DNA of 32,000 bases from Candidatus Paracaedimonas acanthamoebae (GCA_000743035.1 CP008936.1:480001-512000); one strand, 5' to 3'. Positions 2,888 through 29,850 are shown, numbered from the stretch's first letter. Notes: generated by a model not told the origin, from the sequence alone. Numbers and translations: made by a program.

Positions 2888-2890
2888 CAC

Positions 2891-7700: not shown

Positions 7701-9966
7701 AACTTGAAATATCATCATAGAAAATATCAATTGGTTCAATTGAGCTAAAATCTTGTATAAGTAATCCTTCGATCTCTTTAAAAAAAGTCCGTAAAGCGTC
7801 ATGCTTGATAACAAGAGCTTTTATAGAAGAAATTAAAGCTTCAGAGTTTAAATCACCAAATAAATCAATGCTGAAAGGTAAGTTGTATACTCTTTTTTCT
7901 GAGAGAAAAGAATCTAAAAACCACAAACGTTGCTGTGAAAAATTGGCTGGTATAGAATTAGAACCTTGAGGCTGGTTTGCTAAATTAAGCTCTTGTTCTA
8001 CCCAGTTTTCAATAAGATAGTTAAGTGTTTGAGCTATTGAATTATTAGAAGAGAATACAATAGAAGATGGAATTGTTTGCAATAAATCACGATGGATTCT
8101 TGCTAAGAATAAAGTCAACTTTACAGAATTGAATCCTAGACTAGTGAGACTCTTTTCCAAATCTTGTTGATTAAGAGAGATACCCAAAATATGTGAAGCT
8201 AACTGAAGAAGGTAGCTGCTCAACAATTTTTTTCTAGTTTCTAAAGTACAGGTAAAAACATTAGAAGATATCTGAGGTTCAGGTATAAGCATATCACTGC
8301 TAAAGCCGTCTTCTTGCGCCACAATAGAAAGCTTATGCTCTAAATAAAGTTTTTTACATAATTGTCTTTGTACCTTCCCGCTAGAAGTTTTTGGGAGGCT
8401 TCTCTCACGAAGTAAAACAATTTTATAAGGCACTATTTCATGATTTTCATAGAGTTGCTTTCTAATTAAATTATAAAGCTTATTAAAATCTCGAAAATGG
8501 CGATGGACTTCTTGGACAACAATTATGTTCGCTTCATGCCCATCATTTTCTATAGAGAAAACAGCGCAACTATTGCTCAATAAGGCAGTATGGCTATTTG
8601 AGGTTGTTTCTTCAATATCTTGGGGGTATATGTTTTGGCCATTTAAGATAATTAAGTCTTTCAACCGACCGCTAACATAAAGATTATTATCAGCGTCTAA
8701 AAAGCCGAGATCTCCTGTTTTTAAGTATTGCTTATTATTTTCTACTAGAGTAGCAAAGAAAGTCTCTTTTGTGATCTCGGGTTTTCCCCAATAGCCTGCG
8801 GCGATGCTTGATCCATATAGCCAGATCTCTCCTTCTTCATAAGGTTGGCATATTGCTCTAGTGGTAGGATTTACGATAATTAATTCATGATCTTTAGCAG
8901 CTTGGCCACAATTTATAAGCCCCTGTGGATGTTCATCTGTTTTATGTAGACTAATTTTCTTTTTAGATGCAACAAAAAGTGTTGATTCTGCAAGGCCATA
9001 GGCAGGATATAAAGAGAAAGGGTTAAATCCTGCTGTAGCAAAATTTTGGATAAAGTTCTCCATAACTTTATTACTTATAGGTTCTGCACCGTTAAAGACA
9101 ACTTTGAGAGAACTTAAATCTAATTCTTTTATTTGCGAGTCAGTGATAACTTTTGAGCATAAATCAAAAGAAAAATTTGGTGCTCCTGTTATAGTAGCTT
9201 TTTGCTCCGTTATTATTTTTAGCCATTTAAAGGGTTCTTGCATGAATGATTGGGGTGACATGAAGCAGCATTTAAATCCACAAAATAAAGGAAATAATGT
9301 ACCGAATATAAGCCCCATATCATGGTAAGAAGGTAACCAGCTAACCATAACATGTTCATCCAAAGGTATTTCATCCTGAATAACATCCTTAATAAGCACA
9401 AGGTTTGTCATAATATTTTCGTGTGAAATAATAACCCCTTTTGGTTCTCCTGTCGAACCTGAGGTATATTGTAAGAAGGCTATTTTATTTTGTCTGTCTA
9501 AGGTTAGAAGATTGGCTTCGGTATCAATGAAATTCAAAAAACTAACATCCTCAATAAATATCAAAACTTCACCACGCGTTGTTAACAAACTAGTATCAAA
9601 ATTATTGAGAGATTTCTGAGTAATAATAAATTTGGCTGCGCATGAGTTTTGGATAGCTTGTACTCGTGTTGCTCGTTTGTTATTAGTTGGTAAATATACG
9701 GGGACAGCAACTGCATTTGCGGCGAGGCAGGCTAGGAAAGAAATAATATAGTCTATACCCTGAGGCAATAAGATTAAAACTCTTTCATTTGCGCAATTAT
9801 TATTTTTAAGCTTGTTTGCTAATATTGAAGTTCTTTCATAAAGCTCTTTATATGTAATGGTTTGTATTATGTTATCATGGTTATAAAAAACATATGCTTC
9901 TCTTCGAGGTGTATGTTTCGCATGATGGTGAAGACTCTCTAAAATTGTTTTTTTTAATGTATTCAT
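4714..9966 (-). CDS. NRPS lipo-initiation module: FAAL - ACP - C - A - PCP (1,750 aa), no TE, R or E domain
   Basis: FAAL motifs YTSGSTGEPKG, WLPSYHDMGL, GAPNF, KTGDLGF, GRLKDLIILNGQNIYPQDIE (aa about 1-550). Carrier 1 LGFNS (Ser614). C domain QQRLWFL and HHIILDGQS (aa 804-812). A domain YTSGSTGLPKG, NMYGISETT, GEMYVGGDGVSDGY, YRSGDL, GRRDHQIKIRGFRVELGEIE, NGKIDRK. Carrier 2 LGGHS. Confidence 0.93.
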   Translation of the reverse strand: MNTLKKTILESLHHHAKHTPRREAYVFYNHDNIIQTITYKELYERTSILANKLKNNNCANERVLILLPQGIDYIISFLACLAANAVAVPVYLPTNNKRATRVQAIQNSCAAKFIITQKSLNNFDTSLLTTRGEVLIFIEDVSFLNFIDTEANLLTLDRQNKIAFLQYTSGSTGEPKGVIISHENIMTNLVLIKDVIQDEIPLDEHVMVSWLPSYHDMGLIFGTLFPLFCGFKCCFMSPQSFMQEPFKWLKIITEQKATITGAPNFSFDLCSKVITDSQIKELDLSSLKVVFNGAEPISNKVMENFIQNFATAGFNPFSLYPAYGLAESTLFVASKKKISLHKTDEHPQGLINCGQAAKDHELIIVNPTTRAICQPYEEGEIWLYGSSIAAGYWGKPEITKETFFATLVENNKQYLKTGDLGFLDADNNLYVSGRLKDLIILNGQNIYPQDIEETTSNSHTALLSNSCAVFSIENDGHEANIIVVQEVHRHFRDFNKLYNLIRKQLYENHEIVPYKIVLLRERSLPKTSSGKVQRQLCKKLYLEHKLSIVAQEDGFSSDMLIPEPQISSNVFTCTLETRKKLLSSYLLQLASHILGISLNQQDLEKSLTSLGFNSVKLTLFLARIHRDLLQTIPSSIVFSSNNSIAQTLNYLIENWVEQELNLANQPQGSNSIPANFSQQRLWFLDSFLSEKRVYNLPFSIDLFGDLNSEALISSIKALVIKHDALRTFFKEIEGLLIQDFSSIEPIDIFYDDISSYNGSSKSKILERLINETIFHTFDLTKPFLFKAGLIKIDENHHILVLNFHHIILDGQSITLFLDELSETYNKLRKVPSLSFPEASFTYKAYSSWFRQFLKPSTMERQISFWQEHLSQAADLTTLSPDFERPETLSYSGKTITHAIPQQLTNQLRKLSEKYHTSLFTVLLSAFYVLVYRYTHQNDLIIGTPVSGRVYAGTDKLIGLLMNTLPLRLVLREEMSFLEVLEALKETLSSAQDNQDVPFDMLVKRINIPRVLNRNPLYQLLFTAREDWNKFLHLDGIKTKITEEGRSYSKFDLTIFIQEQESQLEIQAEYAEDLFKEYTISNLLQSYITLLYSIVDNVGSKISILPILSQEEKNNILQKFNHEYLSFNLPEENIIKIFEDQVSKYPHRNCLRFNGRTLTYSQLNERSNQLAHYLITKRANKGKLIAISLESSIELIIAMIAVMKTGAAYVPIDPSYPLDRIDSILKDANVELLLTNNSFKDRYESYENIIITLDGNNEEIEKQPLENLELSFSLDNTAYIIYTSGSTGLPKGSLISHKNVISLFRACEHLFNFNKEDTFCLFHSFTFDLSVWEIWGALLYGRELVIVPTEIKKDTQAFLSFLEKEEVSILTQTPSSFDSLILANQSNFRKNLKLRHIILAGEKLEVSKLEWWWNAYHDKNQQLTNMYGISETTIYSTYLKLTKNHIDSRSPYSPVGAPLDNTKIYILDDNLTPVPEGVIGEMYVGGDGVSDGYLNRPELTEQRFITDPFSSETGTDCNKSSKMYRSGDLARYCSTGTIEYLGRRDHQIKIRGFRVELGEIESLLNLNMLIEKAAVICNTNAAGECSLIAYIKIRDEAKGEKSNRELFVNIKNYLIQKVPEYMVPTKFIQVDNFPLTVNGKIDRKKLPTIQQQELIDAVASEEPKNKVEEEICKIWSEILNVKQVGTTDNFFKLGGHSLLLNKVTLRIKAHYGVSLSISECFSNPTIKHLAKMVSDKQSDVRAIVKCEPPSV

Positions 9967-10249
9967 ATGGTTGTATAATAAATCATTTGATAAAATATTT
10001 TCAAATTATAAAAAATATCTCTTACGCGCTATATTTTTTATTTTTCTTGTAATTAACAATTTATAGTACTCAACTTTACAAGATTTCCAAAATAATAAAT
10101 GCTTTCCTCAAAATTTAAAATATGGTTAAGAGGTGTTACTTATGCTTTCATCATAAAAATAAAGAAGCTCCTAAGGCTTTCAACCGATTTTATCGGGTTC
10201 TAATCAATTTATGCTAATATGCATTTATATTTATGCATCCATATTTTAT

Positions 10250-11443
10250 TCAAATAGCGACTATTTTTTTAGCCTCTAAAAAACTATCACTATTTAATCT
10301 ATTTAAACACTCTTGCATTAGTAAAATACCAATTTCTAGATCATTTGTAATATTAGAAGAGCCTCCTTCACGTAAAAGGTTAATGAGGTCATCATATCTG
10401 AGATGTTTCGTTTGAGATAAACTTTCCATTATAATCACTTCGTCTTCTTGTACTTCCTTCACTTTTGAGTATGGGGGAAATATACTAAAATAAGGTCTAA
10501 TAAATTCTCTAACGGCGAGTAGGCCAAAACAAAGGCTTTTGGCAACAAAAAAGTATGATTTATTGGTTTGAGAGAATGAAGAACCAAAATATTCATCAAG
10601 CATTTTGCTATCTTGTATGTTGGTCAAGCGGAATTTTAAGGATAATGCAGCTAATTCCAAGTAGATGTCACCCATACCAGCACAATCCCAATCAATGAAT
10701 GTTGCTAATCTTTTGTTATTTATAAATATATTTTCCTCATGCAAATCAAAGTGGCATGGTTTTACACTTTCCGCATTATTTAATAGGCTAGCTAGATAAT
10801 CAAAATATTTCAAAAAATCTTGGTATTCTCTTGACGTTGGGATTTTACAAGTCTCAATTAAGGTGAAATGCTCTCTTCCATAATCTATGAGTGTTGTAGC
10901 GGGTGGAAAGGTTAAATTTGAATTATGCAACTTTTTAGTGGTTGCAAAAATTGATGTCATGATTTCCCAATCGATCTTTAACCAAGTTAAGAGCGTTGAT
11001 AAAGGGCGGCTCTCTAAAAACTCCATAACCATAAAGTAGGTGTTGCTAGTTTTTCCTGACAAAAAAACACAAGGGCCGAGCCCCTTTATCCCAGCATTTT
11101 CTGTCATCATAACTTCATTGGCGCTAGATTTTTCTAAGGTTCTTAATACTTTAAGAATATAAGGATATTTCTTCTCTAATTTAAAAACATCATTTCCACT
11201 ACATGAATTTTGAAGTTTTTGGCAATGGAAGCCTTCTTTTTTCAATTCATGTTCTAAGTCTTCTGCTAAGGGGGTCTCATTTAATTTTAAGACTCGAGAA
11301 AGACTATCTAGTTCATCTGCTGCAAACTTGGATTCACAAGCTAATGCACAGTTATTGAAGAATTGTATAAGAAGTATAAGAAAGATATATATATTTCGAG
11401 ACAGATCATGGGTGAGATTAAGTTGGCTAAAATATTTTATCAT
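10250..11443 (-). CDS. APH/choline-kinase-like phosphotransferase with an N-terminal hydrophobic signal-like segment
   Basis: Catalytic loop CHFDLHEENIF (HxDxxxxN) and IDWDCAGMGD (DxD-type metal site). N-terminal IYIFLILLIQFFNNCALA. Confidence 0.7.
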   Translation of the reverse strand: MIKYFSQLNLTHDLSRNIYIFLILLIQFFNNCALACESKFAADELDSLSRVLKLNETPLAEDLEHELKKEGFHCQKLQNSCSGNDVFKLEKKYPYILKVLRTLEKSSANEVMMTENAGIKGLGPCVFLSGKTSNTYFMVMEFLESRPLSTLLTWLKIDWEIMTSIFATTKKLHNSNLTFPPATTLIDYGREHFTLIETCKIPTSREYQDFLKYFDYLASLLNNAESVKPCHFDLHEENIFINNKRLATFIDWDCAGMGDIYLELAALSLKFRLTNIQDSKMLDEYFGSSFSQTNKSYFFVAKSLCFGLLAVREFIRPYFSIFPPYSKVKEVQEDEVIIMESLSQTKHLRYDDLINLLREGGSSNITNDLEIGILLMQECLNRLNSDSFLEAKKIVAI

Positions 11444-11733
11444 TTAAATTCTCAAAGTTAACATCAGTTGAACTATAGCTATATAAGATTATTTATTGCA
11501 ATAACGCAAAATATTATAAATGGTTTTCATTCTTTTGAAATTCTTTCCTTCTTGAGATAAAAGATACTGTATTTTCTTGATAAGCAGTCACTTGAAAAAA
11601 TGTTGAGACGATAGCTCTTGTGTTTACAATTTCATATTGGAGTATGTTAAGTAATGTAGATGTCTTGTCTATTAGCATTTTTCTTGTATGCTAGTAAAAG
11701 TTTATAAATTTAAAGAGTGGAGGATATTTTATT

Positions 11734-12537
11734 GTGGCGTTTAAGCGGAAAGAACAACTTTCAATAGCAAAAGAAAGCTTTATCGAATTTTTTAAATCTC
11801 TTATGTCAGCAATTTTAGTTATTGGTGCTATTCAAACTGTTGCATATCAGAATTTTCATATACCTTCCGGATCAATGAAACCTAACTTACTCGTTGGAGA
11901 CTTTCTCTTTGTTTCGAAGTTTGCTTATGGTTACAGTCATTATTCTCTTCCTTTTAGTCCCCCACTCTTTAAAGGACGTATTTTGGCCCAAGAGCCTAAA
12001 AGGGGAGATGTTGTGGTTTTTAGGCCTCACTTTGACACTAAAACGGATTTTATCAAAAGGTTGATAGGGCTTCCTGGTGATCGTATTCAAATGCGCGATG
12101 GCATCCTTTATATCAATGATAAAGAGTGTCCCCTGGAAAAAGTACAAGAAGAATTTTCAGACCATTTATATATTAATTATTTTCCTGCAAATATTGAAGA
12201 GCGCGTTTATGATGCGGAAGGAGTGAAAATTCCTCAGTACATAGAAACGCTTCCTAATGGTGTTAAGCATCTCATTATCAAAGAAAAGCCGTTTGGTGCA
12301 GGGCGGTTTGATAATACTGATGTATTTATTGTTCCTGAGAATCATTACTTCGTGATGGGCGATAATCGAGATGGCTCTGATGACAGTCGTAACATAAACC
12401 GGTTAGGATGCGTTGCGCAAGAAAATCTAATTGGCCGTGCTGAGCTAATTTATTTTTCTACTGAAGCTCAGTGGTGGGAAGTCTGGAAGTGGTTTACACA
12501 TTTGCGTTATGATAGACTTTTGAAATTTATTCGTTAA
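11734..12537 (+). CDS. lepB: Signal peptidase I (S26)
   Basis: PSGSMKPNL (Ser nucleophile), KRLIGLPGD (general-base Lys box) and GDNRDGSDDSR. Overall layout is like alphaproteobacterial LepB. GTG start after GGAGG. Confidence 0.9.
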   Translation: MAFKRKEQLSIAKESFIEFFKSLMSAILVIGAIQTVAYQNFHIPSGSMKPNLLVGDFLFVSKFAYGYSHYSLPFSPPLFKGRILAQEPKRGDVVVFRPHFDTKTDFIKRLIGLPGDRIQMRDGILYINDKECPLEKVQEEFSDHLYINYFPANIEERVYDAEGVKIPQYIETLPNGVKHLIIKEKPFGAGRFDNTDVFIVPENHYFVMGDNRDGSDDSRNINRLGCVAQENLIGRAELIYFSTEAQWWEVWKWFTHLRYDRLLKFIR

Positions 12538-19609: not shown

Positions 19610-20086
19610 TCATAATGCAAGTTTCCGCTTATCGTCTTGCTTATCTAGAGAAAACCCATCAAGAGGATATCCTAAAGCTCTTAAATCTTGTTGGAGTTTT
19701 GAAATATTGCACCTGAATTGCTTTGACTGATCCCATTTGTTAAAAGGGTTCTTTCTTTCTTCAAGCCAGCCATTTTTAACAAGCGTAGAGATGCATCTTC
19801 GCATGGTTGTATCTGATGTATTCAACATCGTGTCTGAGAGAAGATCACTAACTCTTTTATAAATCCAACCATAACGAGGAGAAACATTAATATCCAACAT
19901 CTCCTCAGCAATCGGGCCTATAACACGAATACGACTTTCTTCTTCAATCATCTTGTCAAAGTCTTTTGCAGATCTTGTATACAAAAGAAATTGATTGAGA
20001 ATAATTGCAAGAGTTGGGTCTTTAGTTAGCTCGACCAGTTCTTCACAAACTGTAACTCTTTTTAAGGGGCGTGGTAGCTTATTCAT
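19610..20086 (-). CDS. Putative winged-helix DNA-binding protein (replication-initiator or regulator-like)
   Basis: 158 aa. GWIYKRVSDLLSDTMLNTSDTTMRRCISTLVKNGWLEERKNP looks like a wHTH recognition unit. GGGAGC lies upstream of the ATG. Confidence 0.55.
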   Translation of the reverse strand: MNKLPRPLKRVTVCEELVELTKDPTLAIILNQFLLYTRSAKDFDKMIEEESRIRVIGPIAEEMLDINVSPRYGWIYKRVSDLLSDTMLNTSDTTMRRCISTLVKNGWLEERKNPFNKWDQSKQFRCNISKLQQDLRALGYPLDGFSLDKQDDKRKLAL

Positions 20087-20600: not shown

Positions 20601-20635
20601 ACTTTTTTTCCCTAAAACTTCATTTTTTTCATTAT

Positions 20636-20664
20636 TTGCACTTTTTGGCAATTTGAGGTATAAG
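20636..20664 (+). promoter_or_regulatory. Rightward sigma70-like promoter (TTGCAC - 17 nt - TATAAG) for the repressor gene
   Basis: Read on the plus strand, 45 nt upstream of the ATG at 20709. Confidence 0.45.
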
Positions 20665-20708
20665 TATGACCTATTCATGTTTCTTATATTAAGGAAAAAC
20701 AAACTCCA

Positions 20709-21332
20709 ATGGATGCTCCCAAGCGCTTAATGTATACACGGCAGCTTACAAATATGCCACGTACTGTATTCTGTAGAAAATATGACGTGAGTCCAAGTTC
20801 TTTAGCAAAGTGGGAGCTAGGTGCAAAAGAATTGTCCCTTAGGAGTGCAAGAAAGTTATCCTTAATTTTTGAAAAAGAAGGGATTAGCGTAACTCCTGAG
20901 TGGTTATTGAATGGCGAGGGAGAAGCTGCTCGCAAAGCTAGAACTATTTCTAATAGAAAAGGCGCAGAGGCCATCGCTACTGAAAAGGATTTAATTGAAG
21001 AAGAGCTTCAAAAATTTGAAGCCTTCCATGAGAATATACTCTCTTTGAAGATTTATGATGATTCCTGTTTTCCAATTTATATCCCCGGGGATTATGTTGC
21101 AGGTGTGGCTTTAGAAGGGGAAAACATGCTCACGCTCAGAGAGAGGATATGTATCGTCCAATTACTAAATGGTGTTATATGTGTAAGAAAGATAATGGAT
21201 TATCAAGATGTAGATAATACGTTCGATTTAGAATGCATCAATCCATATACTGAGATAGCTCAAAAGACACTTAAGGCTGCCCAGCTAATTTCTGCGGCAC
21301 CTATTACTTTTTTTAGAAGGGTTTCTTCATAA
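20709..21332 (+). CDS. CI/LexA-like repressor: XRE-type HTH plus S24-like C-terminal domain
   Basis: N-terminal RQLTNMPRTVFCRKYDVSPSSLAKWELG. The C-terminal beta-rich domain has DDSCFPIYIPGDYV (GDSM-like) and ICVRK (Lys box-like). Confidence 0.7.
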   Translation: MDAPKRLMYTRQLTNMPRTVFCRKYDVSPSSLAKWELGAKELSLRSARKLSLIFEKEGISVTPEWLLNGEGEAARKARTISNRKGAEAIATEKDLIEEELQKFEAFHENILSLKIYDDSCFPIYIPGDYVAGVALEGENMLTLRERICIVQLLNGVICVRKIMDYQDVDNTFDLECINPYTEIAQKTLKAAQLISAAPITFFRRVSS

Positions 21333-22736
21333 TTTGATACGCAGCCATAGGGGAATGAAAAAGAAGGTAACTGCTGCTCCTAAGCTAATTAAGCATAAAC
21401 TGTTAAAGAAGTTTGTGTAAAATCCTAGATTCTCTATACCTGCTGTATCCCCTTGAGAGGTAAGTGTCGCAAGCTTACCTGAAAAATACTGGGCTATTCC
21501 GATGGAAAAGTACCAGATCCCAACATAGAAAGAAGCATATTTTTTAGGCGCTATCTTAGTAATAGCAGACATAGCGGTAGGCATTATACATATCTCTCCA
21601 ATAACAAAACACATCAATGCTAAGATTAAAAACCAGGGAGACACTAAACCTTGTGTTGCTAAGCGAGTTGATATCCATAAAACAAGAAAGCCAATACTTA
21701 CCATACCAAGACCGGCACTCATTTTAGTAAAAATGGAGTATGAGATTTTATACTTTTTTAGGTAACGCCATAATAAAGCTAATATGAATCCTAGCATTAA
21801 ATTGAAAAGTGGATCAATGGCTTGGAAAAACGTTGTTGGAATAGTAGTGATGCCAATATTAGAGAATCCCTTGAGGGTGCGGTCTAGATAGTTTTCTGCA
21901 AATAAAACAAGGGAGTTACCAGATTGCTCATAAAGGATAAAGAATGAAACAGTGATCAGAATCACTAGACCAAAAACTTTAATATTTTTAGTCTGATTTT
22001 CTGCATGAAATAGGGTCGCTAATGCAACGAGGATACCACTTATTAAAATGAAACTGATAATAAAGGTTGGTTGGATAGTAGCGTAGTTGAAAAAGAAATA
22101 AACAATCGCAATAATAATAGGCACCGATAATAATTTCAAGAGATCTTGACCTAGTTTGGCTATGCTAAGCTTTATGTATTTGCCAAAGAAGCCTAAGAAA
22201 AACAGTGCCAAGCAATCTGCAATGAGCATCATAAGAAAAGAAACTTTCCAATTAAGACACTCTCCTAAAACCGCACACATCACAGTACCAAACAGGGTTG
22301 CCAAATTCATAAGGGCATAAAAGAAAGTGAATTGTGCATCTCGGTTGAGAGAGTCTTTACCAATTATTTGACTTAACAAGGGTAAGATTGAAGGACGGAC
22401 TAAACCGCGCCCAACAAGAGCAAAGCTTGCTCCTAGGAAAAAATAAGTAAAGTCTAAGTATAATAAAAGAGAGCCAATAGCTGAACATAAAAATCCTATA
22501 AAAATTGAATTTTCTTGCCCTAGGTATTTGTCAGAAATCCAACCCCCAACTAAGGGAGTCAAATAGGACAGCATCATTAAAGATCCATAGGTTGCAAAAG
22601 CATTTTGATTTGAATAAAGAAGCTCTTTCACAAGAAACAGGACAACCATAGAACGTAGGCCATTAAAAACAAATCGCTCAATAGCGGCTAATAGAGTGAT
22701 TAACGCAATATTCTTACCTCTAATGAGAGAGATCAT
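21327..22736 (-). CDS. POT/PTR2-family (MFS) proton-dependent oligopeptide transporter
   Basis: ERFVFNGLRSMVVLFL...LTPLVGGWISDKYLGQ signature and about 12-14 hydrophobic spans. ATG at 22736 (TTG at 22742 in the ORF track). It overlaps the upstream gene by 17-23 nt. Confidence 0.8.
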   Translation of the reverse strand: MISLIRGKNIALITLLAAIERFVFNGLRSMVVLFLVKELLYSNQNAFATYGSLMMLSYLTPLVGGWISDKYLGQENSIFIGFLCSAIGSLLLYLDFTYFFLGASFALVGRGLVRPSILPLLSQIIGKDSLNRDAQFTFFYALMNLATLFGTVMCAVLGECLNWKVSFLMMLIADCLALFFLGFFGKYIKLSIAKLGQDLLKLLSVPIIIAIVYFFFNYATIQPTFIISFILISGILVALATLFHAENQTKNIKVFGLVILITVSFFILYEQSGNSLVLFAENYLDRTLKGFSNIGITTIPTTFFQAIDPLFNLMLGFILALLWRYLKKYKISYSIFTKMSAGLGMVSIGFLVLWISTRLATQGLVSPWFLILALMCFVIGEICIMPTAMSAITKIAPKKYASFYVGIWYFSIGIAQYFSGKLATLTSQGDTAGIENLGFYTNFFNSLCLISLGAAVTFFFIPLWLRIKL

Positions 22737-24162
22737 TAGCAATATTCCTTATGCTTGGGGGCAATGTAATAGCAAAGATATGAAAAATTTCTTCAACCTG
22801 ACGCTTACTTATATTAAGCAGCCTTAGTCCATTTAAACTCAAATTTGATAAATCCTTAAACTGTTTCCAAATATCGGTAATTTGTAATAAATGCTTACAA
22901 AGAGGCGAGAGATCAAGAGAGTCACTACTTTTCTCTAAAGCTTTAGGAAAGTATAAAAGATGCATTGCAAGATTTTGTTGGAGTTGGTCTTCGATTTCTA
23001 AGGGTGTGTCCTTATTAAGATTTAAATGCTTTTCAAAACCAAAAATTCGGGCACATTGAAAACATACCATAGCAGATGGATGAGCCAAAAAATCTGGACT
23101 TTTAAGAAAGGAAATATAGCCTTCTTCAAGAGGTTGCTTAAAATTGTCAATTTTAAGAAAGAGGAGAGCAATAAAGTTTTTGAAACACGTAAAATCTTCT
23201 TCTGGTATGGGGAAGTGAGAATGGATAAAGTTAGAAGAAAATACTTCCACCTCGTTCAAGAATTGCTCCATTGTAATACCAAAATAAGGATCAAGTTTAT
23301 AAGCCTTGTTTGGCTGTTCTAGTAAATAGCCGTGAGACCTATGAATAAGCTCAGTATTAATGCCATATCTGTTCCAAGCGCCAAGAATTTGTCTCCAATG
23401 GTGTTCTTGGCGATTACCAATAACATATATAATTTTGTCTGCTTCTTGCTTATAAATGCGCTCATAAATGGCGGCCATATCTATGCTTGAGTAAGCGAGA
23501 AATTCATCATTTCCTTTTAAGAAAACAGAGTAAGAGTTTCCTAAAGGAACCATGATATTGCCCTGATGCGTTTCAATAAGATTTTTAGCTTTAAACAGAG
23601 ATATTACTGTTTCTATATGAGGGATGTAGCGACTTTCACCACTGTATTGATCGAAGCTAACATGTAAAAAGTCGAGCATTTTTTGAATTTCGGAAAGGGT
23701 AATGGCGGATATTTTATCGCGCAAAGAAACATAATCACCTTGAGCTTGCTGAAGAGTAATTGCTTCTTGACGAACTTTAGCATCTAATTTTTGATCTTTT
23801 GCTGCGCGTAAAGCAACATCCTTCTGAATTTCGAATATTAGCTTAGGATTAGCTTGTAAGCTCTCAACCACTTGATGAAGATTTTGAGAGCGCTCTTTTA
23901 AACCATACAATAAACAGCCCATTTGAGGTCCGTGATCGCCATAGTGAATATCGCCGATGGTCGTGAAGCCGCTAAATTTTAGAAGCCTTTTTAGACTTTC
24001 GCCAAGAATTGTTGTCCTTAAGTGCCCTAGATGCATAGGTTTAGCAATGTTAGGCCCACAGTAATCGATGATTATCTTTTTATCTGTTTTGCCTTTAGTA
24101 AAAAATTGCTGTGTTCCTTGCTTTTCTAACAGCTCAAGCTTTTCAATAAGGTTATCCCCCAT
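22720..24162 (-). CDS. Arginyl-tRNA synthetase paralogue lacking the N-terminal domain (480 aa)
   Basis: ArgRS-type catalytic core: IIIDYCGPNIAKPMHLGHLRTTILGESLKRLL, HYGDHGPQMG, FDQYSGESRY, YSSIDMAAIYER, IIYVIGNRQEHHW. The HIGH box starts at residue 44, versus about 120-130 in canonical ArgRS. Confidence 0.75.
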   Translation of the reverse strand: MGDNLIEKLELLEKQGTQQFFTKGKTDKKIIIDYCGPNIAKPMHLGHLRTTILGESLKRLLKFSGFTTIGDIHYGDHGPQMGCLLYGLKERSQNLHQVVESLQANPKLIFEIQKDVALRAAKDQKLDAKVRQEAITLQQAQGDYVSLRDKISAITLSEIQKMLDFLHVSFDQYSGESRYIPHIETVISLFKAKNLIETHQGNIMVPLGNSYSVFLKGNDEFLAYSSIDMAAIYERIYKQEADKIIYVIGNRQEHHWRQILGAWNRYGINTELIHRSHGYLLEQPNKAYKLDPYFGITMEQFLNEVEVFSSNFIHSHFPIPEEDFTCFKNFIALLFLKIDNFKQPLEEGYISFLKSPDFLAHPSAMVCFQCARIFGFEKHLNLNKDTPLEIEDQLQQNLAMHLLYFPKALEKSSDSLDLSPLCKHLLQITDIWKQFKDLSNLSLNGLRLLNISKRQVEEIFHIFAITLPPSIRNIANDLSH

Positions 24163-24171
24163 CTGTCATAC

Positions 24172-25113
24172 CTATATCTCTGTAATTTTTTTTAGTTCTT
24201 TATAAACGGCACCTTGTAAAGAAATAAATTCTATTATTGTTTTCTCTATACTTTTTTGGTGTTCAGGTTCAATGAATTCATTTTTGAAGGTAAAGTTTTT
24301 AGAAAAATCACCATGACCAAATGCAAGATCTGCTTCTTCGTGCTGTCGAAATACTTTGAGAGCGTCCCTCGGAATAAGATTAAGGTCTTCCATTCTTTTC
24401 CATTCTCTCAATCTTTGTTTTATATATCCTGGAGAATTAGAAGGGCTTTCAGTAATACTGATGCAAAGGCTGTAACTCGTGAAATCATCCTTTGCAAGTT
24501 GGCTCAAAAAACTTATTAAATTTTGAGTTTCTTTTAAAGGGCCGGTTGCTTGTATTTTTTCTTGTGATATTCCAGCTTTCCGGAGACCGTAATATAAAAA
24601 TTGTCCATGCCAACGTTCTTCTTCTAAGTAGTCATCCAGGTAACTGAGTTCCTCAAAGCTGAGATCATTTTCTAATGCTGGCATGATATGAGCGACAGCA
24701 GAATTAATAATATGGTATGATTCAAATAATGATCTTAGGAGAGTTTCTTTGTTTAAATTTGGTGCTGTATCTAACCCCTGCTTCTGTAACATAGCATGAC
24801 GCATGGCTCTCCCGGTTGCTAGGGTATGCTCATGGTAACTGTTCCATGGTAAGGATTGTGCTTCCTTTAATTCCAGAAAGCCAAGTTCATATAAATATAA
24901 TAAAATATCATCATGCTTGGCGCTGAAAGCTTGATCTGTATGACTTTTAGCGTTATTTATTTCTGCAGGTTGGTTAATTTGTTGAAGAGTCTCATTGATT
25001 GAATTAACTGCATTTTTAAAATGGATGGTGCGCCATCCAGAGTTAAAACCGATAATTTGGTCATCCTTTAATATAGGTAAACATAAGCTGGAAAATTCAA
25101 ATCTCAGAGCCAT
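24172..25113 (-). CDS. All-alpha protein with ExxH-type motifs: possible heme-oxygenase-like diiron (HDO/PqqC/TenA-fold) enzyme
   Basis: About 313-317 aa. LEEERWHGQF, YHEHTL and FRQHEEADLAFGHGDF suggest carboxylate/His metal ligands on helices. The fold assignment is a guess. ATG at 25113 after GGGGGAG (TTG at 25125 in the ORF track). A 9-nt gap separates it from the ArgRS-like gene. Confidence 0.6.
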   Translation of the reverse strand: MALRFEFSSLCLPILKDDQIIGFNSGWRTIHFKNAVNSINETLQQINQPAEINNAKSHTDQAFSAKHDDILLYLYELGFLELKEAQSLPWNSYHEHTLATGRAMRHAMLQKQGLDTAPNLNKETLLRSLFESYHIINSAVAHIMPALENDLSFEELSYLDDYLEEERWHGQFLYYGLRKAGISQEKIQATGPLKETQNLISFLSQLAKDDFTSYSLCISITESPSNSPGYIKQRLREWKRMEDLNLIPRDALKVFRQHEEADLAFGHGDFSKNFTFKNEFIEPEHQKSIEKTIIEFISLQGAVYKELKKITEI

Positions 25114-25220
25114 CCACTCCCCCAATAAATAGAACTATCCCTGTGTCTTACCTCTCCCTAAAGAGGATTAATATTAGGCTGTATCTTATTTGATGAGGGG
25201 GTACTAAGTTTTGCATAAAG

Positions 25221-25287
25221 TAGGCTAGTACCATCAGCGACCTCATATATCATTTATGTCATATACAAGCTAATGGTACCTAGCCTA
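25221..25287 (-). promoter_or_regulatory. Long imperfect hairpin between the sORF and the downstream operon
   Basis: TAGGCTAGTACCATCAGC (25221-25238) pairs with GCTAATGGTACCTAGCCTA (25269-25287). That is about 17 bp with one mismatch and one bulge, and a 30-nt loop. No clear T-run follows. Confidence 0.5.
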
Positions 25288-25324
25288 ATAATAAAGCTAC
25301 TAAACTGTCAACATTATTGTTAGG

Positions 25325-25432
25325 TCAATCCCGTGCTAAAGGATCAAAGAATTCTTTCTCTACACATATTTCTATTTCAAACGGCTTAGTATTTTCTTTA
25401 GGTTGACAAGTAGTTGTATTAGATATCTTCAT
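25325..25432 (-). CDS. 35-codon sORF: MKISNTTTCQPKENTKPFEIEICVEKEFFDPLARD
   Basis: The ATG is preceded by AAGGAG at 7 nt and by a near-consensus promoter. It lies below the ORF-track length cut-off. Confidence 0.5.
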   Translation of the reverse strand: MKISNTTTCQPKENTKPFEIEICVEKEFFDPLARD

Positions 25433-25464
25433 AACTATTCTCCTTTTCTAGTTTGGTCATTCAC

Positions 25465-25492
25465 ATGTTAGCAATGATCTTTTATATGTCAA
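25465..25492 (-). promoter_or_regulatory. Near-consensus sigma70 promoter (TTGACA - 16 nt - TAACAT)
   Basis: Read on the minus strand: gagTTGACAtataaaagatcattgcTAACATgtg, about 30 nt upstream of the sORF ATG. Confidence 0.55.
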
Positions 25493-26483: not shown

Positions 26484-26996
26484 ATGAGTCTCAGCATAAG
26501 GTTCCATGGATCTTATATTGCTTTGTTAGCAGAATTATTGCTACATTCCCTATCTTTTAGCTCTGGCATTCATAAAGATCTTAGGGAATATGAGTGGGAA
26601 GATATCTATCAAATAGGACTAGTCTCAAACGCTGCTTATTATTACTTTAATTGTGCAAACGATGTTAAAACTAGCATGGAAGAGTTAGAGCAAGCTGGTT
26701 GGGCATGTAAATTGATAGGAGATGGTCCTTTTCATGTCATACGAGCGGAGTATGGTCCTCTTGTTGTTTTAGGCTTTAAGGGCACAACTAAGACAGAAGA
26801 TTATGCCTCCGATTTAAATGCAATCAGATTAACTGTCACAGAGAGTGAACAACAAGGGGTCGCCCATCGCGGAATTTATTCTTATACAAAAAAATTACCT
26901 GCTTCTATTAATGCTCTTTTTAATCCAGATGATGGTGATGAGCTTCTTGTTCTTGCTGGGCACAGTCTAGGTGGAGCAGTAGCGCAATTAAAGGGA
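26484..26996 (+). pseudogene. Class-3 (fungal-type) lipase, N-terminal part truncated by the IS3 end
   Basis: VVLGFKGTTKTEDYASDL, GVAHRGIY and the nucleophile elbow AGHSLGGAVAQ. The IS terminal TG begins at 26997, 7 codons after the Ser. Confidence 0.75.
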
Positions 26997-27041
26997 TGAT
27001 CTTGCTACAATAAAGCGGACACAAGGAACCGAGATGGGTTA

Positions 27042-27344
27042 ATGTTATTGAAAGGAGAGAACATGACCCAGAAATACGATAAAGAATTTAAAATTAATGC
27101 GGTTAAAGTTTATTTGAGTAATGACAAGAGCATTGAGAAGATCGCTTTAGATTTAGGGATTTCGCGTGCCAGTTTAGGGCACTGGATTAAACAATACCGG
27201 CGTGAGGGAGAGAGAAGTTTTCCTGGCAGTGGCCATGTTGTTGAGGAAGAATTAAGAGCGCTTAAGCGGGAGCTTTATCTTGTTCGCCAGGAGCGAGATA
27301 TCTTAAAAAACCACCTAAATGGCACCCCTTTCCCTAATAAATAG
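27042..27344 (+). CDS. IS3-family OrfA (HTH) with its 3' end replaced by IS110 sequence
   Basis: Identical to 3087-3389. It diverges from the IS3 consensus after ...RQERDILK at the A-run at 27305-27310. Confidence 0.85.
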   Translation: MLLKGENMTQKYDKEFKINAVKVYLSNDKSIEKIALDLGISRASLGHWIKQYRREGERSFPGSGHVVEEELRALKRELYLVRQERDILKNHLNGTPFPNK

Positions 27345-27540
27345 AAACTCGCGCTCGTTAACTGCTAAAGTTGAGCTATCAAAGAGAGCGGCCGTCTGCT
27401 TATTGGTGGATTACCCCGTTAAAAAACATGGTCCAGGGAGTACAACGAACCCGGCATTGGAGGTACAAACCCCGTTTAGGAAAGTGATTTATTCGTTACC
27501 CTGCTCTTTGATTCTATAGATAAACAAGGAGAAGAGGTAA
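27311..27540 (+). ncRNA. Candidate bridge (seek) RNA in the IS110 left end
   Basis: 230-nt relatively GC-rich non-coding end 5' of the recombinase gene. Two homologous modules (ATTGGTGGA..ACCCCGTT at 27402-27420 and ATTGGAGGT..ACCCCGTT at 27456-27476) are each followed by a junction-matching string. Confidence 0.4.
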
Positions 27541-27543
27541 GTG

Positions 27544-28908
27544 ATGACTCAATCTAACAGACAATCCAGTATGCCAATTATTCATCAAAATGCTGCTGGG
27601 ATTGATATTGGTGCTAAGTTTCACGTTGTTGCTGTAGGGAGTGATAAAGCAAAAGAACCAGTTCGTACGTTTCAAAGTTTTACCACAGATTTACATGCTA
27701 TGGCAAAATGGCTTAAAAGCTGTGAGGTCACCAGCATTGCTATGGAATCCACAGGTATTTATTGGATTCCTGCTTTTGAGATCTTAGAGAATTATGGTTT
27801 TGAGGTATTTTTAGTTAATCCACGAGAAGCTAAAAATGTTCCTGGACGTAAAACAGACGTCAATGATGCGCAATGGATTCAACGGTTACATCAATTTGGT
27901 TTGTTACGTGCTAGCTTCAGACCAGAAAAACAAATTACTGTGCTACGTGCTTATATTAGACAACGTGAACGTATGCTTGAATTCAGAGCCTCTCATATCC
28001 AGCATATGCAAAAAGCTTTAATGCAAATGAACTTACAGTTGCATCATGTCGTATCGGATATAACGGGAGCCACAGGCATGAAGATCATTCGTGCGATTAT
28101 GAATGGTGAACGTTGCCCTGCTGTATTAGCAGAACATAGAGACATACGTTGTAAGGAATCCATTAAAACTATTGAGGAATCCTTAAAGGGTAATTATCAA
28201 GAAGAGCATTTGTTTTCTTTAACTCAAGCTGTTGAATTATTCGATTATTACACACAAAAAATTAATGAGTGTGATCGTCGAATAGAAGAGACATTAAGCT
28301 TGCTTGGAAAAGATAATAAGTTGCCTGATCAACCTCTACCCAAAGCCAGGCATCGCACTAAACAACCTAATAGCTTAAGCTTTGATGTAAGAGCATCCCT
28401 TTACCAAGCATTAGGAATGGACTTAACACAAATACACGGTGTTGGACCTTCATTAGCCTTAAAATTAATATCAGAATGTGGCACTGATATGTCTCGCTGG
28501 CCGAGCAGCAAGCACTTTACTTCTTGGCTATGTCTTTCTCCAGGGAATAAGGTATCAGGAGGGAAAGTATTATCATCACGAACACGGCGTTCCTCAAGTC
28601 GTGCGGCAGCAGCATTAAGATTGGCTGCTGTAACAATTGGAAAGACAAATACGGCTCTTGGTGCGTTTTATAGACGACTCTCGGCTCGCATTGGTAAATC
28701 AAAGGCAATTACTGCAACAGCTAGAAAAATGGCAGTATTATTTTTTAATGCTCTGCGTTATGGAATGCAATATGTTGATCCAGGTGCCAATTACTATGAG
28801 GCACGATATCAAAAGCGGGTTCTTGATAACTTATCAAAGCGAGCTGCTGCTTTAGGTTATATATTGCAAGAGAATAAAATGCAGGACTTGGTACAGGGAG
28901 TTTCTTAG
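27544..28908 (+). CDS. IS110-family DEDD transposase/recombinase
   Basis: Identical to the copy L protein. The stop TAG at 28906-28908 is 2 nt from the element end. Confidence 0.92.
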   Translation: MTQSNRQSSMPIIHQNAAGIDIGAKFHVVAVGSDKAKEPVRTFQSFTTDLHAMAKWLKSCEVTSIAMESTGIYWIPAFEILENYGFEVFLVNPREAKNVPGRKTDVNDAQWIQRLHQFGLLRASFRPEKQITVLRAYIRQRERMLEFRASHIQHMQKALMQMNLQLHHVVSDITGATGMKIIRAIMNGERCPAVLAEHRDIRCKESIKTIEESLKGNYQEEHLFSLTQAVELFDYYTQKINECDRRIEETLSLLGKDNKLPDQPLPKARHRTKQPNSLSFDVRASLYQALGMDLTQIHGVGPSLALKLISECGTDMSRWPSSKHFTSWLCLSPGNKVSGGKVLSSRTRRSSSRAAAALRLAAVTIGKTNTALGAFYRRLSARIGKSKAITATARKMAVLFFNALRYGMQYVDPGANYYEARYQKRVLDNLSKRAAALGYILQENKMQDLVQGVS

Positions 28909-28956
28909 GAAAGCAGTTGCCATCTTCTCCGAACCCCGAGGCAAAGGTACGAATTC

Positions 28957-29832
28957 ATGAAGCATCATACCACTTTATTTTCCTTGGATCAGATGGCGCA
29001 AGTCTTAGGGGTTTCTCGCAGTGGGTATTACGATTTTATTAAAAGGAGTCCCAGCAAGAGAGAACTGGAGAACACTGAGACTGTTAAAAGAATGAGGACT
29101 ATTTTTGAGGAGAGCCGAGAAACTTATGGCAGTCCTCGGATCCATGCAGAACTTTGTGCTCAGGGAACTTTTTGTTCTCGAGTTAAAGTCGCTCGATTGA
29201 TGCAGAAGAATGATATCCAAGCCAAGATGTATAGGAAGTTTGTTAAAACAACAAAACGTTCAGAAAATATCACTCGTCCAACCCAGGATCTCGTTCAGCA
29301 GAATTTTTATTCTCCTCTTCCTAATAGAATTTGGGCCGCAGATATTACTTTTATTGCCATCAATAGAACCTGGGCTTATCTGGCTATTATTCTTGATCTA
29401 TTCTCTCGAAAAGTGGTGGGAATGGCTTTGAGTGATCACATGAGAAGTTCTTTAATTTTAGCAGCACTTAATCAAGCTCTCTTATTAAGGAGACCTCCTT
29501 CAGGGCTTATTCATCATTCTGATATGGGGAGCCAATATACAAGCAATAACCTTTATGAAATAGCTCAAACTCATGGAATAAAACTGAGTCATGGAAAAAC
29601 AGGATGTGCTTATGACAATGCTGCAATGGAGAGCTTCTTTCATACGCTTAAAACAGAGCATGTCTATTTTAAGAACTATAAAACTTTAGAAGAAGCAAAA
29701 ACCGATATCTTTGAATACATATTCACATTTTATAACTCTAAAAGGAGGCACTCGACACTCAACTATCAAAGTCCAAATCAGTGGGAATACAATCATTACA
29801 AAAATCAAACCATCTCAGTTCACAATGTCTAA
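28957..29832 (+). CDS. IS3-family transposase OrfB (DDE/rve core)
   Basis: Identical to 599-1474. Its ATG overlaps the reconstructed orfA stop (ATGA). Confidence 0.95.
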   Translation: MKHHTTLFSLDQMAQVLGVSRSGYYDFIKRSPSKRELENTETVKRMRTIFEESRETYGSPRIHAELCAQGTFCSRVKVARLMQKNDIQAKMYRKFVKTTKRSENITRPTQDLVQQNFYSPLPNRIWAADITFIAINRTWAYLAIILDLFSRKVVGMALSDHMRSSLILAALNQALLLRRPPSGLIHHSDMGSQYTSNNLYEIAQTHGIKLSHGKTGCAYDNAAMESFFHTLKTEHVYFKNYKTLEEAKTDIFEYIFTFYNSKRRHSTLNYQSPNQWEYNHYKNQTISVHNV

Positions 29833-29850
29833 ATTTTTGTAGCAAGATCA

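Follow-up and report, generated by a model that had tools for sequence, protein, structure and literature searches.

A mobile five-gene module of probable RiPP type in Candidatus Paracaedimonas acanthamoebae, probably directing synthesis of a modified peptide

We analyzed a 32,000-nucleotide stretch of the genome of the amoeba symbiont Candidatus Paracaedimonas acanthamoebae (GCA_000743035.1 CP008936.1:480001-512000), referred to as the window, in which four minus-strand ORFs lie at 21327-25432 (Table 1). In order, they encode a short peptide (the sORF), a predicted heme-oxygenase-like diiron oxidase (HDO) with an N-terminal winged-helix domain, a paralogue of arginyl-tRNA synthetase (ArgRS) and a POT-family transporter. 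A sequence-only reading had described four same-strand genes packed as one unit, with a 9-nt gap between a 317-aa gene and the ArgRS-like gene and a 17-23 nt overlap at the transporter start. All of this held, the overlap being 23 nt from the TTG start of the transporter and 17 nt from its ATG start. The length of 317 aa was corrected: the oxidase gene most likely starts at ATG 25113, which follows a GGGGGAG sequence and agrees with the starts of homologues. A fifth gene, a convergent HTH regulator overlapping the POT stop, was added to the unit.

Table 1. Positions of genes and sequence elements, counted from the first nucleotide of the window.
Feature	Position	Strand	Remarks
TenA/PqqC-like protein, 236 aa	18560..19270	-	Possibly associated; an L044 homologue (43% identity) lies directly upstream of an HDO-family gene
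cI/Cro-type HTH regulator, convergent, 207 aa	20709..21332	+	Unassigned C-terminal domain; overlaps POT stop by 6 nt
POT-family transporter (di/tripeptide:H+ symporter type)	21327..22742	-	Likely ATG start at 22736
ArgRS paralogue, 480 aa	22720..24162	-	Reduced to the catalytic core; Add1 domain absent, anticodon-binding domain degenerate
Winged-helix + heme-oxygenase-like diiron oxidase, 313 aa	24172..25113	-	From model, Foldseek and conserved ligands; 317 aa from TTG 25125
Long hairpin, outer stem of ~17 bp enclosing the conserved repeat	25223..25285	-	dG -33.1 kcal/mol, z -3.7
Conserved inverted repeat, CTTGTATAT-N10-ATATA(Y)(R)(R)G	25242..25269	-	9-N10-9; nearly invariant in six syntenic lineages
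Second TTGACA (-35-like), between sORF and oxidase gene	25306..25311	-	Read directly; internal promoter inferred
Precursor-type sORF, 35 aa, MKISNTTTCQPKENTKPFEIEICVEKEFFDPLARD	25325..25432	-	C-terminal rule recurs beside homologous oxidase genes
Shine-Dalgarno AAGGAG	25440..25445	-	Read in sequence; 7 nt before sORF ATG
Promoter-like site P1, TTGACA-16-TAACAT with TG, before sORF	25465..25492	-	Best match in the region (10/12 positions); function inferred

The claim that the only good promoter stands before the sORF held in part, since P1 is the best candidate in the region but a second TTGACA precedes the enzyme genes. Promoter-like sites as a class were not enriched (18 found, 18.7 expected). 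Of the six lineages read, five (L001, L002, L010/11, L012 and L014) have TTGAC(A/T) at the place of the second site, and the -10 element of this putative internal promoter is weak in the window. The Shine-Dalgarno sequence claimed for the sORF is present, and its equivalent, AAGGA(G/A), precedes the sORF in the six syntenic lineages. However, it is not the only one, because the oxidase ATG follows GGGGGAG. A 17-bp hairpin, also claimed, proved real, as none of 200 shuffled sequences folded as stably; its outer stem is lineage-specific and was not found in the other lineages examined, whereas the conserved part is the inner repeat, which is maintained among syntenic lineages while its flanks diverge. 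This repeat occurs at a single site in the window and could act either as an operator or as a 5' RNA stem-loop. No Rfam element matched the leader region.

The unit recurred elsewhere: the order sORF, 313-aa protein, ArgRS-like gene, POT gene and convergent HTH gene was the same in six lineages, with identities to the window of 39-50% for the HDO, 37-51% for the ArgRS-like protein, 33-52% for POT and 46-64% for the HTH regulator, the best-conserved protein of the module. Looser versions of the HDO, ArgRS-like and POT trio were present in two further lineages (L017 and L042). ArgRS-paralogue clusters of this type are very rare: a search space of 5.8 billion proteins yielded only seven. IS copies border the module in the window, and elsewhere its contigs are mostly plasmid-like; thus, its DNA is mobile. 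No PADLOC model for anti-phage defence was met by the module, the only match being a weak one of the regulator, in its HTH region (RmrA, E = 3e-4). The TenA/PqqC-like protein encoded nearby is only weakly linked to the module, because it is absent from the other module loci.

The peptide encoded by the sORF follows a C-terminal rule: a strand-like (I/V)K(I/V)x(I/V) segment, then F(D/N)P, exactly four residues and the stop. F(D/N)P with four residues and a stop was found beside an HDO-family gene at 9 of 11 independent loci, counting the L002 peptide, in which FDL replaces FDP. A single copy is present in L017 and in L043. In L042 there is a tandem array of six peptide genes whose tails vary, and five of the six lie downstream of the oxidase and methyltransferase genes. 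L046 has one copy, neighbored by genes for PqqD, a B12-radical-SAM enzyme, an ABC transporter and an M14-like carboxypeptidase. For the HDO-family loci L015/16 and L044/45, no F(D/N)P sORF was found on the DNA available. In a six-frame scan of 404 kb, all 17 motif matches adjoined an HDO-family gene and none lay elsewhere; from base composition alone, about 7 would be expected, scattered across the full 404 kb. Between the window peptide, MKISNTTTCQPKENTKPFEIEICVEKEFFDPLARD, and that of L012 (...KPFKIKIVSGVEAFDPIARD), 11 of the last 19 residues are identical, and 7 of these 11 are specified by different codons. The Arg codon varies by lineage (CGG, CGC, AGA or AGG), and the last residue is Asp in five lineages and Asn in one. 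Thus, the sORF is a conserved coding gene under protein-level selection with many synonymous codon changes; that it is translated is inferred from sequence comparison. The comparison also shows that it always travels with the winged-helix/HDO fusion and, in the sub-family of the window, with the ArgRS paralogue, POT and the cI-type repressor as well. [quoted passage not shown]

The AF2 model of the oxidase (pLDDT 91.5, pTM 0.90) showed the seven-helix heme-oxygenase-like fold, with 3dde, CADD, PolF, PqqC and UndA as top Foldseek matches (TM-score normalised to target 0.6-0.7). An exhaustive search yielded 124 representatives of the family. Among 41 members, little or no variation was seen at H146, E170, H173, E226, H262, D266 and H271; conservation is at least 90% at E170, H173, E226, H262, D266 and H271, satisfying in sequence the 3-His/3-carboxylate (3H/3C) ligand motif that defines HDOs (PMC13108848). 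Furthermore, the ExxH motif aligned with that of 3dde and MboA, and PF14518 matched 30 of the 41 members. We infer from the fold and the conserved ligands that the protein is a diiron HDO, which would bind two metal ions and activate O2. In the model, its N-terminal domain consists of three strands followed by helices, and weak winged-helix matches were obtained for 12 of 25 members. Sequence evidence that this domain is a PqqD-type RiPP recognition element is weak: hhalign against a PqqD sequence gave a probability of 19%, matches to the Pfam PqqD and PaaA_N models were sub-threshold, and one family member matched PaaA-like_N weakly (E = 0.03). L046 has a separate PqqD gene.

The ArgRS-like protein has a recognizable class I core (PF00750, E = 4e-46), in which PNIAKPMHLGH, YSSIDMAA and RQ align to human and bacterial ArgRS. 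N38, K41, the HLGH motif, Y224, D228 and Q252, arginine-binding positions in ArgRS alignments, are kept, and the KMSKS-equivalent loop is replaced by KPYKxDPxFG. However, it scored 173.1 bits against TIGR00456 (argS), below the cut-off of 261.65, and does not meet the equivalog criterion. The Add1 domain (PF03485), which reads the tRNA D-loop and is present in nearly all longer ArgRS matches, gave no match, and about 100 N-terminal residues are missing in the alignment. The DALR domain (PF05746) reached 17.6 bits against a cut-off of 22.3, and the anticodon-domain motif G.TG.Y.QY..R, common to the genuine ArgRS in the alignment, is absent. In the search concerned, a gap of 600 versus 261 bits lay between the paralogues and all genuine ArgRS that were scored. 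The L017 and L042 paralogues additionally differ in the HIGH motif and in their arginine-binding residues, and pocket and peptide tail appear paired: AR(D/N) with Y/D/Q, A(K/R)(I/V) with H/D/L and CSTI with F/H/Y. This correlation rests on three clades only, and among the six peptides of L042 the one with LATI is an exception. The sequence supports the view that the protein is not a housekeeping synthetase, even though its counterpart in the 41-28 MAG is annotated as 'arginine--tRNA ligase'; indirectly, the plasmid-like contexts in other lineages argue against its being the only argS of the genome. No report of an ArgRS-derived paralogue of non-translational type was found in the literature searched. 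The POT protein exceeded both relevant cut-offs (TIGR00924, 154.9 versus 130.2 bits; PF00854, 92.7 versus 27).

Among known systems, pantocin A (paaPABC) likewise combines a tiny precursor gene, an enzyme with a peptide-recognition winged helix, an iron oxidase and an MFS-type transporter, and its product is a very small peptide-derived antimetabolite. However, PaaA is of ThiF/E1 type and PaaB is a 2OG oxygenase, with no sequence homology to either in the module, and the pantocin core is internal (EEN), not C-terminal. PQQ and mycofactocin are also small products made from short ribosomal peptides with a PqqD-type recognition domain, and MftA is modified at its extreme C-terminus. PqqC shares the fold of the module oxidase (Foldseek 1otw, 5vrc) and is naturally fused to PqqD in Methylobacterium (5vrd), but it lacks a metal site, whereas the module oxidase has the full 3H/3C ligand set; moreover, the ArgRS-paralogue clades have no radical-SAM enzyme and the precursor motif differs. 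ATP-using enzymes act on a peptide C-terminal carboxylate in the PEARL/pearlin pathways, in microcin C (MccB) and in the asparagine-synthetase-like nitrile synthetase PesC (PMC13060819; 10.1101/338681), and PEARL pathways are tied to aminoacyl-tRNA biology. These enzymes have LanB-like, E1-like or AS-like folds and none is a class I aaRS paralogue, and activity of the module paralogue on a peptide is only inferred; domain searches detected no LanB-C-terminal-like peptide aminoacyl-tRNA ligase domain in any module protein. A microcin C-like peptidyl-nucleotide was considered and rejected, there being no ThiF-like protein in the module and the peptide ending in Asp or, in one lineage, Asn. MshC, GluQRS/YadB and cyclodipeptide synthases are truncated class I cores that keep the amino-acid and ATP sites and have lost normal anticodon recognition. 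They derive, however, from CysRS, GluRS and TyrRS/TrpRS, and to our knowledge none is tied to a precursor peptide. UndA, CADD, SznF, BesC, PolF and MboA share fold and ligand motif with the module oxidase, and UndA, in which the substrate carboxylate binds Fe1 directly, offers a template for reactions at the C-terminus of a peptide. In contrast to the module family, which adds the winged-helix domain and a partner peptide, characterized HDOs act on free amino acids, fatty acids or the enzyme itself, and the last ligand spacing differs (HxxxDxxxxH in the module family; UndA and CADD have HxxxDxxH).

Beyond gene layout, the sequence-only reading had proposed an ExxH helical diiron-type protein, which held in fold and conserved ligands, and a truncated ArgRS paralogue, which held by domain scores and alignment. 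Two of its suggested checks, co-occurrence of the trio elsewhere and conservation of the sORF, also came out in its favor, the latter at the amino-acid level. Its RiPP-like or peptide-modifying interpretation on mobile DNA is supported, none of the checks run having refuted it, and of its alternatives the modification of free arginine is the less likely. It knew of no described system with this gene combination, and no description of such a modified-peptide system was found in the literature searched.

Three rival explanations were weighed. In the first, the peptide is a reusable, 'pearlin'-like scaffold: the paralogue would append free arginine (another amino acid in divergent clades) to its C-terminus, the HDO would oxidize the appended residue, and the modified amino acid would be cut off and moved by POT. 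In its favor, the arginine pocket and ATP site are intact in the clade of the window; characterized HDOs mostly use free or tethered amino acids, including the substrate guanidine in SznF; POT transport would be apt for a small product; the constant spacing between FDP and the C-terminus agrees with C-terminal chemistry; and 3-thiaglutamate biosynthesis provides a precedent for the catalytic use of a leader peptide (bioRxiv 10.1101/338681). Against it, varied tails on tandem peptide genes, as in L042, are typical of substrate cores and not of a carrier that is reused, no protease for release is encoded in the module, and there is no homology to LanB-type PEARL enzymes. Furthermore, L043 and L046 have HDO and FDP-peptide but no ArgRS paralogue, which suggests that the oxidase modifies residues of the peptide itself. 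We consider this rival unlikely.

Less probable still is that the sORF is a cis-acting leader, for instance an arrest peptide that senses a metabolite as TnaC and SpeFL do, with the enzymes serving catabolism or salvage of free arginine or imported di-/tripeptides. The sORF does stand first in the unit, behind its best promoter and ribosome-binding site, its conservation is limited to the C-terminus and stop position, as in TnaC and SpeFL, and POT transporters are usually importers. However, the L042 array, largely downstream of the enzyme genes, would be senseless for a leader; the same peptide type occurs in the PqqD/radical-SAM/ABC cluster of L046; a conserved -35-like site separates sORF and enzymes; the oxidase carries an extra winged-helix domain; and the leader region lacks an Rfam match. 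Finally, a self-resistance or spare ArgRS in a cluster making or importing an ArgRS inhibitor is suggested by the MAG annotation and by the extra aaRS copies that confer resistance in the mupirocin, albomycin, agrocin 84 and indolmycin clusters, but is all but ruled out by the missing Add1 domain and anticodon-domain motif, the sub-cut-off TIGR00456 and DALR scores, the altered HIGH motif and arginine-binding residues in L017 and L042, and the bit-score gap to every real ArgRS among those scored.

The reading we favor is that the peptide is a substrate changed near its own C-terminus. Against it stand the lack of a protease for tail release in the module, the two HDO-family loci without an F(D/N)P sORF on the DNA available, the weak evidence for a recognition element in the oxidase, the small number of clades behind the pocket-tail pairing, and the fact that POT transporters normally import di- and tripeptides and do not export them. 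In addition, genuine ArgRS requires tRNA to activate arginine (PMC2034488), so an ATP-only reaction of the paralogue is an assumption. In the favored scheme, the (I/V)K(I/V)x(I/V) strand segment would dock on the winged-helix domain of the oxidase, as leaders do on RiPP recognition elements, and the F(D/N)P turn would fix the four-residue distance to the C-terminus, where the diiron centre may oxidize a residue of the tail. The ArgRS paralogue, having lost its tRNA-recognition parts and kept the ATP site and arginine pocket, would activate the tail carboxylate with ATP, the basic residue at position -2 (Arg of ...ARD) probably occupying the old arginine pocket. POT would carry the small tail-derived product across the membrane, and the repressor would keep the enzyme genes off until a signal, possibly via the inverted repeat just downstream of the putative internal promoter. 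Altogether, although chemistry, product and sORF translation are inferred, the locus is likely a five-gene mobile module of RiPP type whose product would most probably be a modified peptide.

Comparative evidence makes it probable that the module encodes a pathway of the RiPP type (ribosomally synthesised, post-translationally modified peptide) with the sORF peptide as its substrate; no experimental data bear on this. The sequence-only reading had described four same-strand ORFs packed as one unit, with a promoter and a Shine-Dalgarno sequence before the sORF and a hairpin behind it. All four ORFs were confirmed at their coordinates, as were the 9-nt gap between the 317-aa and ArgRS-like genes and the overlap of the latter with the POT transporter gene, which is 17 or 23 nt depending on the start chosen. 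AAGGAG was found 7 nt before the sORF ATG, and the sORF-oxidase intergenic region folds as claimed (dG -33.1 kcal/mol, z -3.7), with the outer 17-bp stem confined to the window lineage. The promoter-like site is the best one in the region, although such sites are not enriched as a class. With 100% identity, the ArgRS-like protein corresponds to IM40_02585 of Candidatus Paracaedimonas acanthamoebae, which carries the label 'hypothetical protein'; the species belongs to the Holosporales and is a symbiont of Acanthamoeba. No defence system was matched, and the window holds no tRNA genes.

Positions of the module genes and surrounding features in the window
Feature	Position	Strand	Basis or remark
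IS copies, 2855 bp each	581-3435 and 26996-29850		inverted, perfectly identical
NRPS, 1750 aa	4714-9966	minus	adenylation, carrier, condensation, adenylation, carrier
APH/choline-kinase-like phosphotransferase	10250-11443	minus	adjoins NRPS
TenA/PqqC-like protein, 236 aa	18560-19270	minus	second heme-oxygenase fold
158-aa ORF	19610-20086	minus	matches part of Rep-like gene
TTTGCAT/ATGCAAA repeat	~20620-20700		upstream of HTH gene
HTH_3 gene, 207 aa	20709-21332	convergent to module	overlaps stop codon of transporter
POT/PTR2 transporter, 471 aa	21327-22742	minus	Pfam/NCBIfam, above cut-offs
ArgRS-like ORF, 480 aa	22720-24162	minus	ORF call
Oxidase ORF, 317 aa	24172-25125	minus	ORF call
Conserved inverted repeat	25242-25269		single copy in window
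sORF, 35 codons	25325-25432	minus	ORF call
TTGACA-16-TAACAT with TG	25492-25465		promoter-like, before sORF
lipase_3 ORF	26484-26999		truncated by right-hand IS copy

The sORF is a real coding gene, as shown by its conservation across lineages, and there are no translation data. Its product reads ...KPFEIEICVEKEFFDPLARD in the window, ...KKIKITIEAGHDFFDPLARD and ...KPLKIEIKAGNEFFDLLARN in the related loci L001 and L002, and ...KPFKIKIVSGIESFDPIARD, ...KPFKIKIVSGVEAFDPIARD and ...KPFKVKIISGVEAFDPIARD in L010/L011, L012 and L014, which form a second clade. When the window is compared with L012, 11 of the 19 C-terminal residues agree, with different codons used in 7 of these 11, and the Arg codon varies by lineage (CGG, CGC, AGA or AGG). 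The sORF conservation on which the earlier reading had staked itself thus held, residues being kept despite differing codons. A ribosome-binding site of the AAGGA type precedes the sORF in all six syntenic lineages, and the peptides match no curated family. In the second clade there is also an extra 31-codon ORF with its own GGAG ribosome-binding site (L010 4013-4108, L012 ~7003-7098, L014 ~671-766), which begins immediately behind the conserved inverted repeat listed above, has G(D/G)GHE and a stop as its end, and overlaps the oxidase start by 8 nt; the window's clade does not conserve it.

The peptides share a segment of strand-like character, (I/V)K(I/V)x(I/V), which is followed by F(D/N)P, exactly four residues and the C-terminus. 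A six-frame scan of the 404 kb of compared DNA for F[DN]P-x4-stop gave 17 matches, all 17 adjoining an oxidase gene and none elsewhere; composition alone predicts ~7 such matches anywhere in the 404 kb. We therefore regard the whole pattern, strand-like segment included, as the family signature.

An exhaustive HMM search with the oxidase returned 124 representatives, and seven of their loci were inspected. In L017, ...TTRIKILRQRFDPCSTI and a stop precede a group made up of the oxidase, an ArgRS-like protein of 480 aa and a POT-like gene. L043 has ...IKVTISYHEFNPFYLL and a stop before the oxidase, plus a convergent HTH gene. L042 carries the oxidase, a methyltransferase, a 410-aa ArgRS-like protein and six peptide genes, whose products end in FDPLATI, FDPVAKI, FDPVARV, FDPVAKV, FDPVAKI and FDPVVRV. 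In L046 a PqqD gene is followed by ...VTIETEIKSTGFDPATRM and a stop and then by the oxidase, accompanied by a methyltransferase orthologue, a B12-radical-SAM enzyme, an ABC transporter and an M14-like carboxypeptidase. No F(D/N)P-type sORF was present on the available DNA of L015/16 and L044/45. Tandem, varied copies and PqqD, radical-SAM and ABC surroundings are typical of RiPP substrates and do not suit a regulatory leader.

Further features of these loci were observed. The L042 peptide genes (245-385, 2550-3342) lie one before the oxidase and five between the methyltransferase and ArgRS-like genes, and the tandem peptides combine variable leader halves with FDPV(A/V)(K/R)(I/V) tails. The L046/L047 region at 900-12400 is a fuller cluster around the same peptide/oxidase pair. 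Besides the PqqD, B12-binding radical-SAM and ABC-transporter genes already named, it has a 730-aa protein without a domain match, a glycosyltransferase and an S24/S26-like peptidase, and its carboxypeptidase is of the M14/AstE-like type. The methyltransferases directly following the oxidase (L015 1691-2683, L042 1450-2400, L046 7320-8174) are mutual orthologues of 33-45% identity; absent from the window module, they form a second recurrent partner of the oxidase family at three unrelated loci.

The 317-aa protein gave only a weak PF14518 match (E = 0.016) in Pfam/NCBIfam, a model matched by 30 of the 41 oxidase family members, and the family has no model of its own in curated libraries. An AlphaFold model based on an alignment of the 41 members reached pLDDT 91.5 and pTM 0.90, and was used instead of an AF2 run with a four-sequence alignment (pLDDT 59). 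By Foldseek, residues ~95-313 form a heme-oxygenase-like fold with 3dde, CADD/CT610, PolF, PqqC and UndA as top matches. Conservation is complete or at least 90% for H146, E170, H173, E226, H262, D266 and H271, and the ExxH motif lines up with its counterparts in 3dde and in MboA, a heme-oxygenase-like dimetal oxidase (HDO). HDOs are defined by a 3H/3C ligand motif (PMC13108848), to which E170/H173, E226 and H262/D266/H271 correspond at the sequence level. The metal-binding helical fold that had been proposed for this protein is thus supported, as a model prediction, by both fold and conserved ligands. Residues ~9-90 have winged-helix topology, three strands then helices, with weak HTH_47, IclR, PaaA_N and PqqD matches. 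As a test for a RiPP recognition element, this N-terminal profile was compared with a verified PqqD sequence; the comparison gave 19% probability, which decides neither for nor against. That the domain binds peptide is an inference, and there are no binding data.

The 480-aa protein contains a strong ArgRS catalytic domain (PF00750, 4e-46); in Pfam, no Arg_tRNA_synt_N domain was found and DALR remained below threshold, and the TIGR00456 score of 173 bits lies under the cut-off of 261.65. Alignment to human and bacterial ArgRS showed that the paralogue begins just before the Rossmann fold and lacks the anticodon-domain motifs. It keeps N38, K41, the HLGH motif, the pair Y224 and D228 within YSSIDMAA, and R251 with Q252; in ArgRS structures these residues hold ATP and the arginine side chain. 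The loop equivalent to KMSKS is replaced by a paralogue-specific KPYKxDPxFG. In L017, where the HIGH motif of the paralogue is altered as well, an F/H/Y pocket goes with the peptide tail CSTI; in L042 an H/D/L pocket goes with tails that mostly read A(K/R)(I/V). This co-variation of pocket and tail raises the possibility that the old arginine pocket reads peptide residue -2, but with three clades only it is a lead and not proof. Genuine ArgRS requires tRNA to activate its amino acid (PMC2034488).

A word-indexed search of 5.8 billion proteins found only three homologues of the 317-aa protein, and all three loci keep the order sORF, ~310-aa protein, ArgRS-like gene, POT gene and convergent HTH gene. 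The second clade was found via the ArgRS-like protein; it has a 436-aa paralogue of 37-38% identity in the identical five-gene order, and its modules adjoin ParA/ParB, Tra and Rep-like genes. By tblastn, the oxidases are 39-50% identical to the window protein, the paralogues 37-51%, the POT transporters 33-52% and the HTH proteins 47-64%. A profile built from seven paralogues retrieved no additional members; scores fell from 600 bits to the 261 bits of the top-scoring genuine ArgRS. We conclude that the module is conserved and extremely rare. At the DNA level, the complete module gave no match among PLSDB plasmids; tblastn against plasmids returned only ordinary argS (23-24% identity) for the paralogue and nothing for the oxidase. 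A GTDB genome scan with the oxidase alignment found nothing beyond the already known 41-28 MAG, a first metagenome scan found nothing, and a second, using the inverted-repeat pattern, gave 24 loci (23 chance matches and one known contig).

In the window, the IS pair, in each copy of which an IS110-type transposase is nested within an rve transposase of the IS3 type, flanks 23.5 kb including the module in a composite-transposon-like arrangement; the truncated lipase_3 ORF lies at its right-hand end. The same segment holds an integrase, a ProQ/FinO gene, the NRPS and a plasmid Rep-like gene fragment. In other lineages neither the NRPS nor the phosphotransferase, which lies on this segment as well, occurs in the vicinity of the module. 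The 158-aa ORF corresponds to the N-terminal portion of a ~400-aa Rep-like gene (weak DnaA_N match) that adjoins the HTH gene on plasmid-like contigs (L010 8536-9771, L012 11526-12716), and the window copy therefore resembles an integrated plasmid remnant. Separately, the 236-aa TenA/PqqC-like protein has 43% identity to the product of L044 5276-5938, a gene directly upstream of an oxidase-family gene; this unrelated metagenome contig hints at a possible recurrent partnership with the oxidase family.

In the six syntenic lineages TTGAC(A/T) immediately follows the sORF, and beyond it lies the repeat CTTGTATAT-N10-ATATA(Y)(R)(R)G, which is nearly invariant whereas its flanks diverge. This repeat may serve as an operator, possibly that of the repressor, or it may form a stem-loop in the 5' RNA. 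Its three variable positions change on one side only and remain G-U pairable in RNA, so the substitutions cannot separate the two. No Rfam family matches the leader region. Another repeat, TTTGCAT/ATGCAAA, distinct from the one before the oxidase gene, is found upstream of the HTH gene. Conserved inverted repeats of this kind were seen upstream of most regulator genes compared (window, L001, L002, L010, L012, L014), and in the second clade a TTGCAT-17-TATAAT promoter is also found there. A LexA/S24-like C-terminal domain in the regulator was considered and dropped, as neither Pfam nor a PDB profile search supported it.

In the pathway we infer, the strand-like segment of the peptide would dock on the winged-helix domain, FDP would set the distance to the C-terminus, the tail would be oxidised at the diiron site, and the ArgRS paralogue would spend ATP on a carboxylate at the tail. 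A small tail-derived product would be moved by the POT transporter, in a direction that we do not infer, and a cI-type repressor would gate expression. A bolder reading can be entertained only as a possibility. In it the ArgRS paralogue is a peptide maturase, the first among the descendants of class I aminoacyl-tRNA synthetases, that holds a basic residue -2 in the ancestral arginine pocket and activates the C-terminal end of the peptide with ATP and without tRNA, while the winged-helix/HDO protein measures 'FDP + 4' and oxidises the tail, yielding a very small new metabolite that is plasmid-borne in amoeba symbionts.

Among the rivals, the best placed is a scaffold-peptide route, with arginine first being appended and afterwards oxidised, which we nevertheless find unlikely. 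Less credible still is a regulatory leader peptide with enzymes acting on free substrates, and least of all a resistance or spare ArgRS; the tandem peptide copies, the PqqD/radical-SAM relatives and the lost tRNA-recognition parts speak against both.

The logic of the module resembles that of pantocin A, of PQQ/mycofactocin and of ATP-dependent C-terminal modifiers (PEARLs, MccB, PesC), but none of the enzymes of these systems is present except for the distant PqqC fold. The open-access literature searched offered only one HDO-RiPP link, a heme-oxygenase-like enzyme in thioamidated RiPP clusters, and otherwise nothing relevant to systems of this type. The same literature contained no report of an ArgRS-derived paralogue, including in natural-product clusters, nor of one tied to a ribosomal precursor peptide; most subscription journals were not covered. 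We think it likely, without experimental data, that the module represents a new family of the RiPP type whose recruited enzyme has no precedent.

If this is true, arginyl-tRNA synthetase would join the few synthetases that have been taken over for chemistry outside translation. HDOs have so far barely been linked to RiPPs, and F(D/N)P, four residues and a stop can be used to mine the oxidase-linked peptide family, for which ~120 oxidase representatives exist. The hypothesis is open to direct test with three small genes in E. coli. Obligate amoeba symbionts carry the module on plasmids and on IS-flanked DNA, and its product may therefore play a part in competition or signalling within the host cell.
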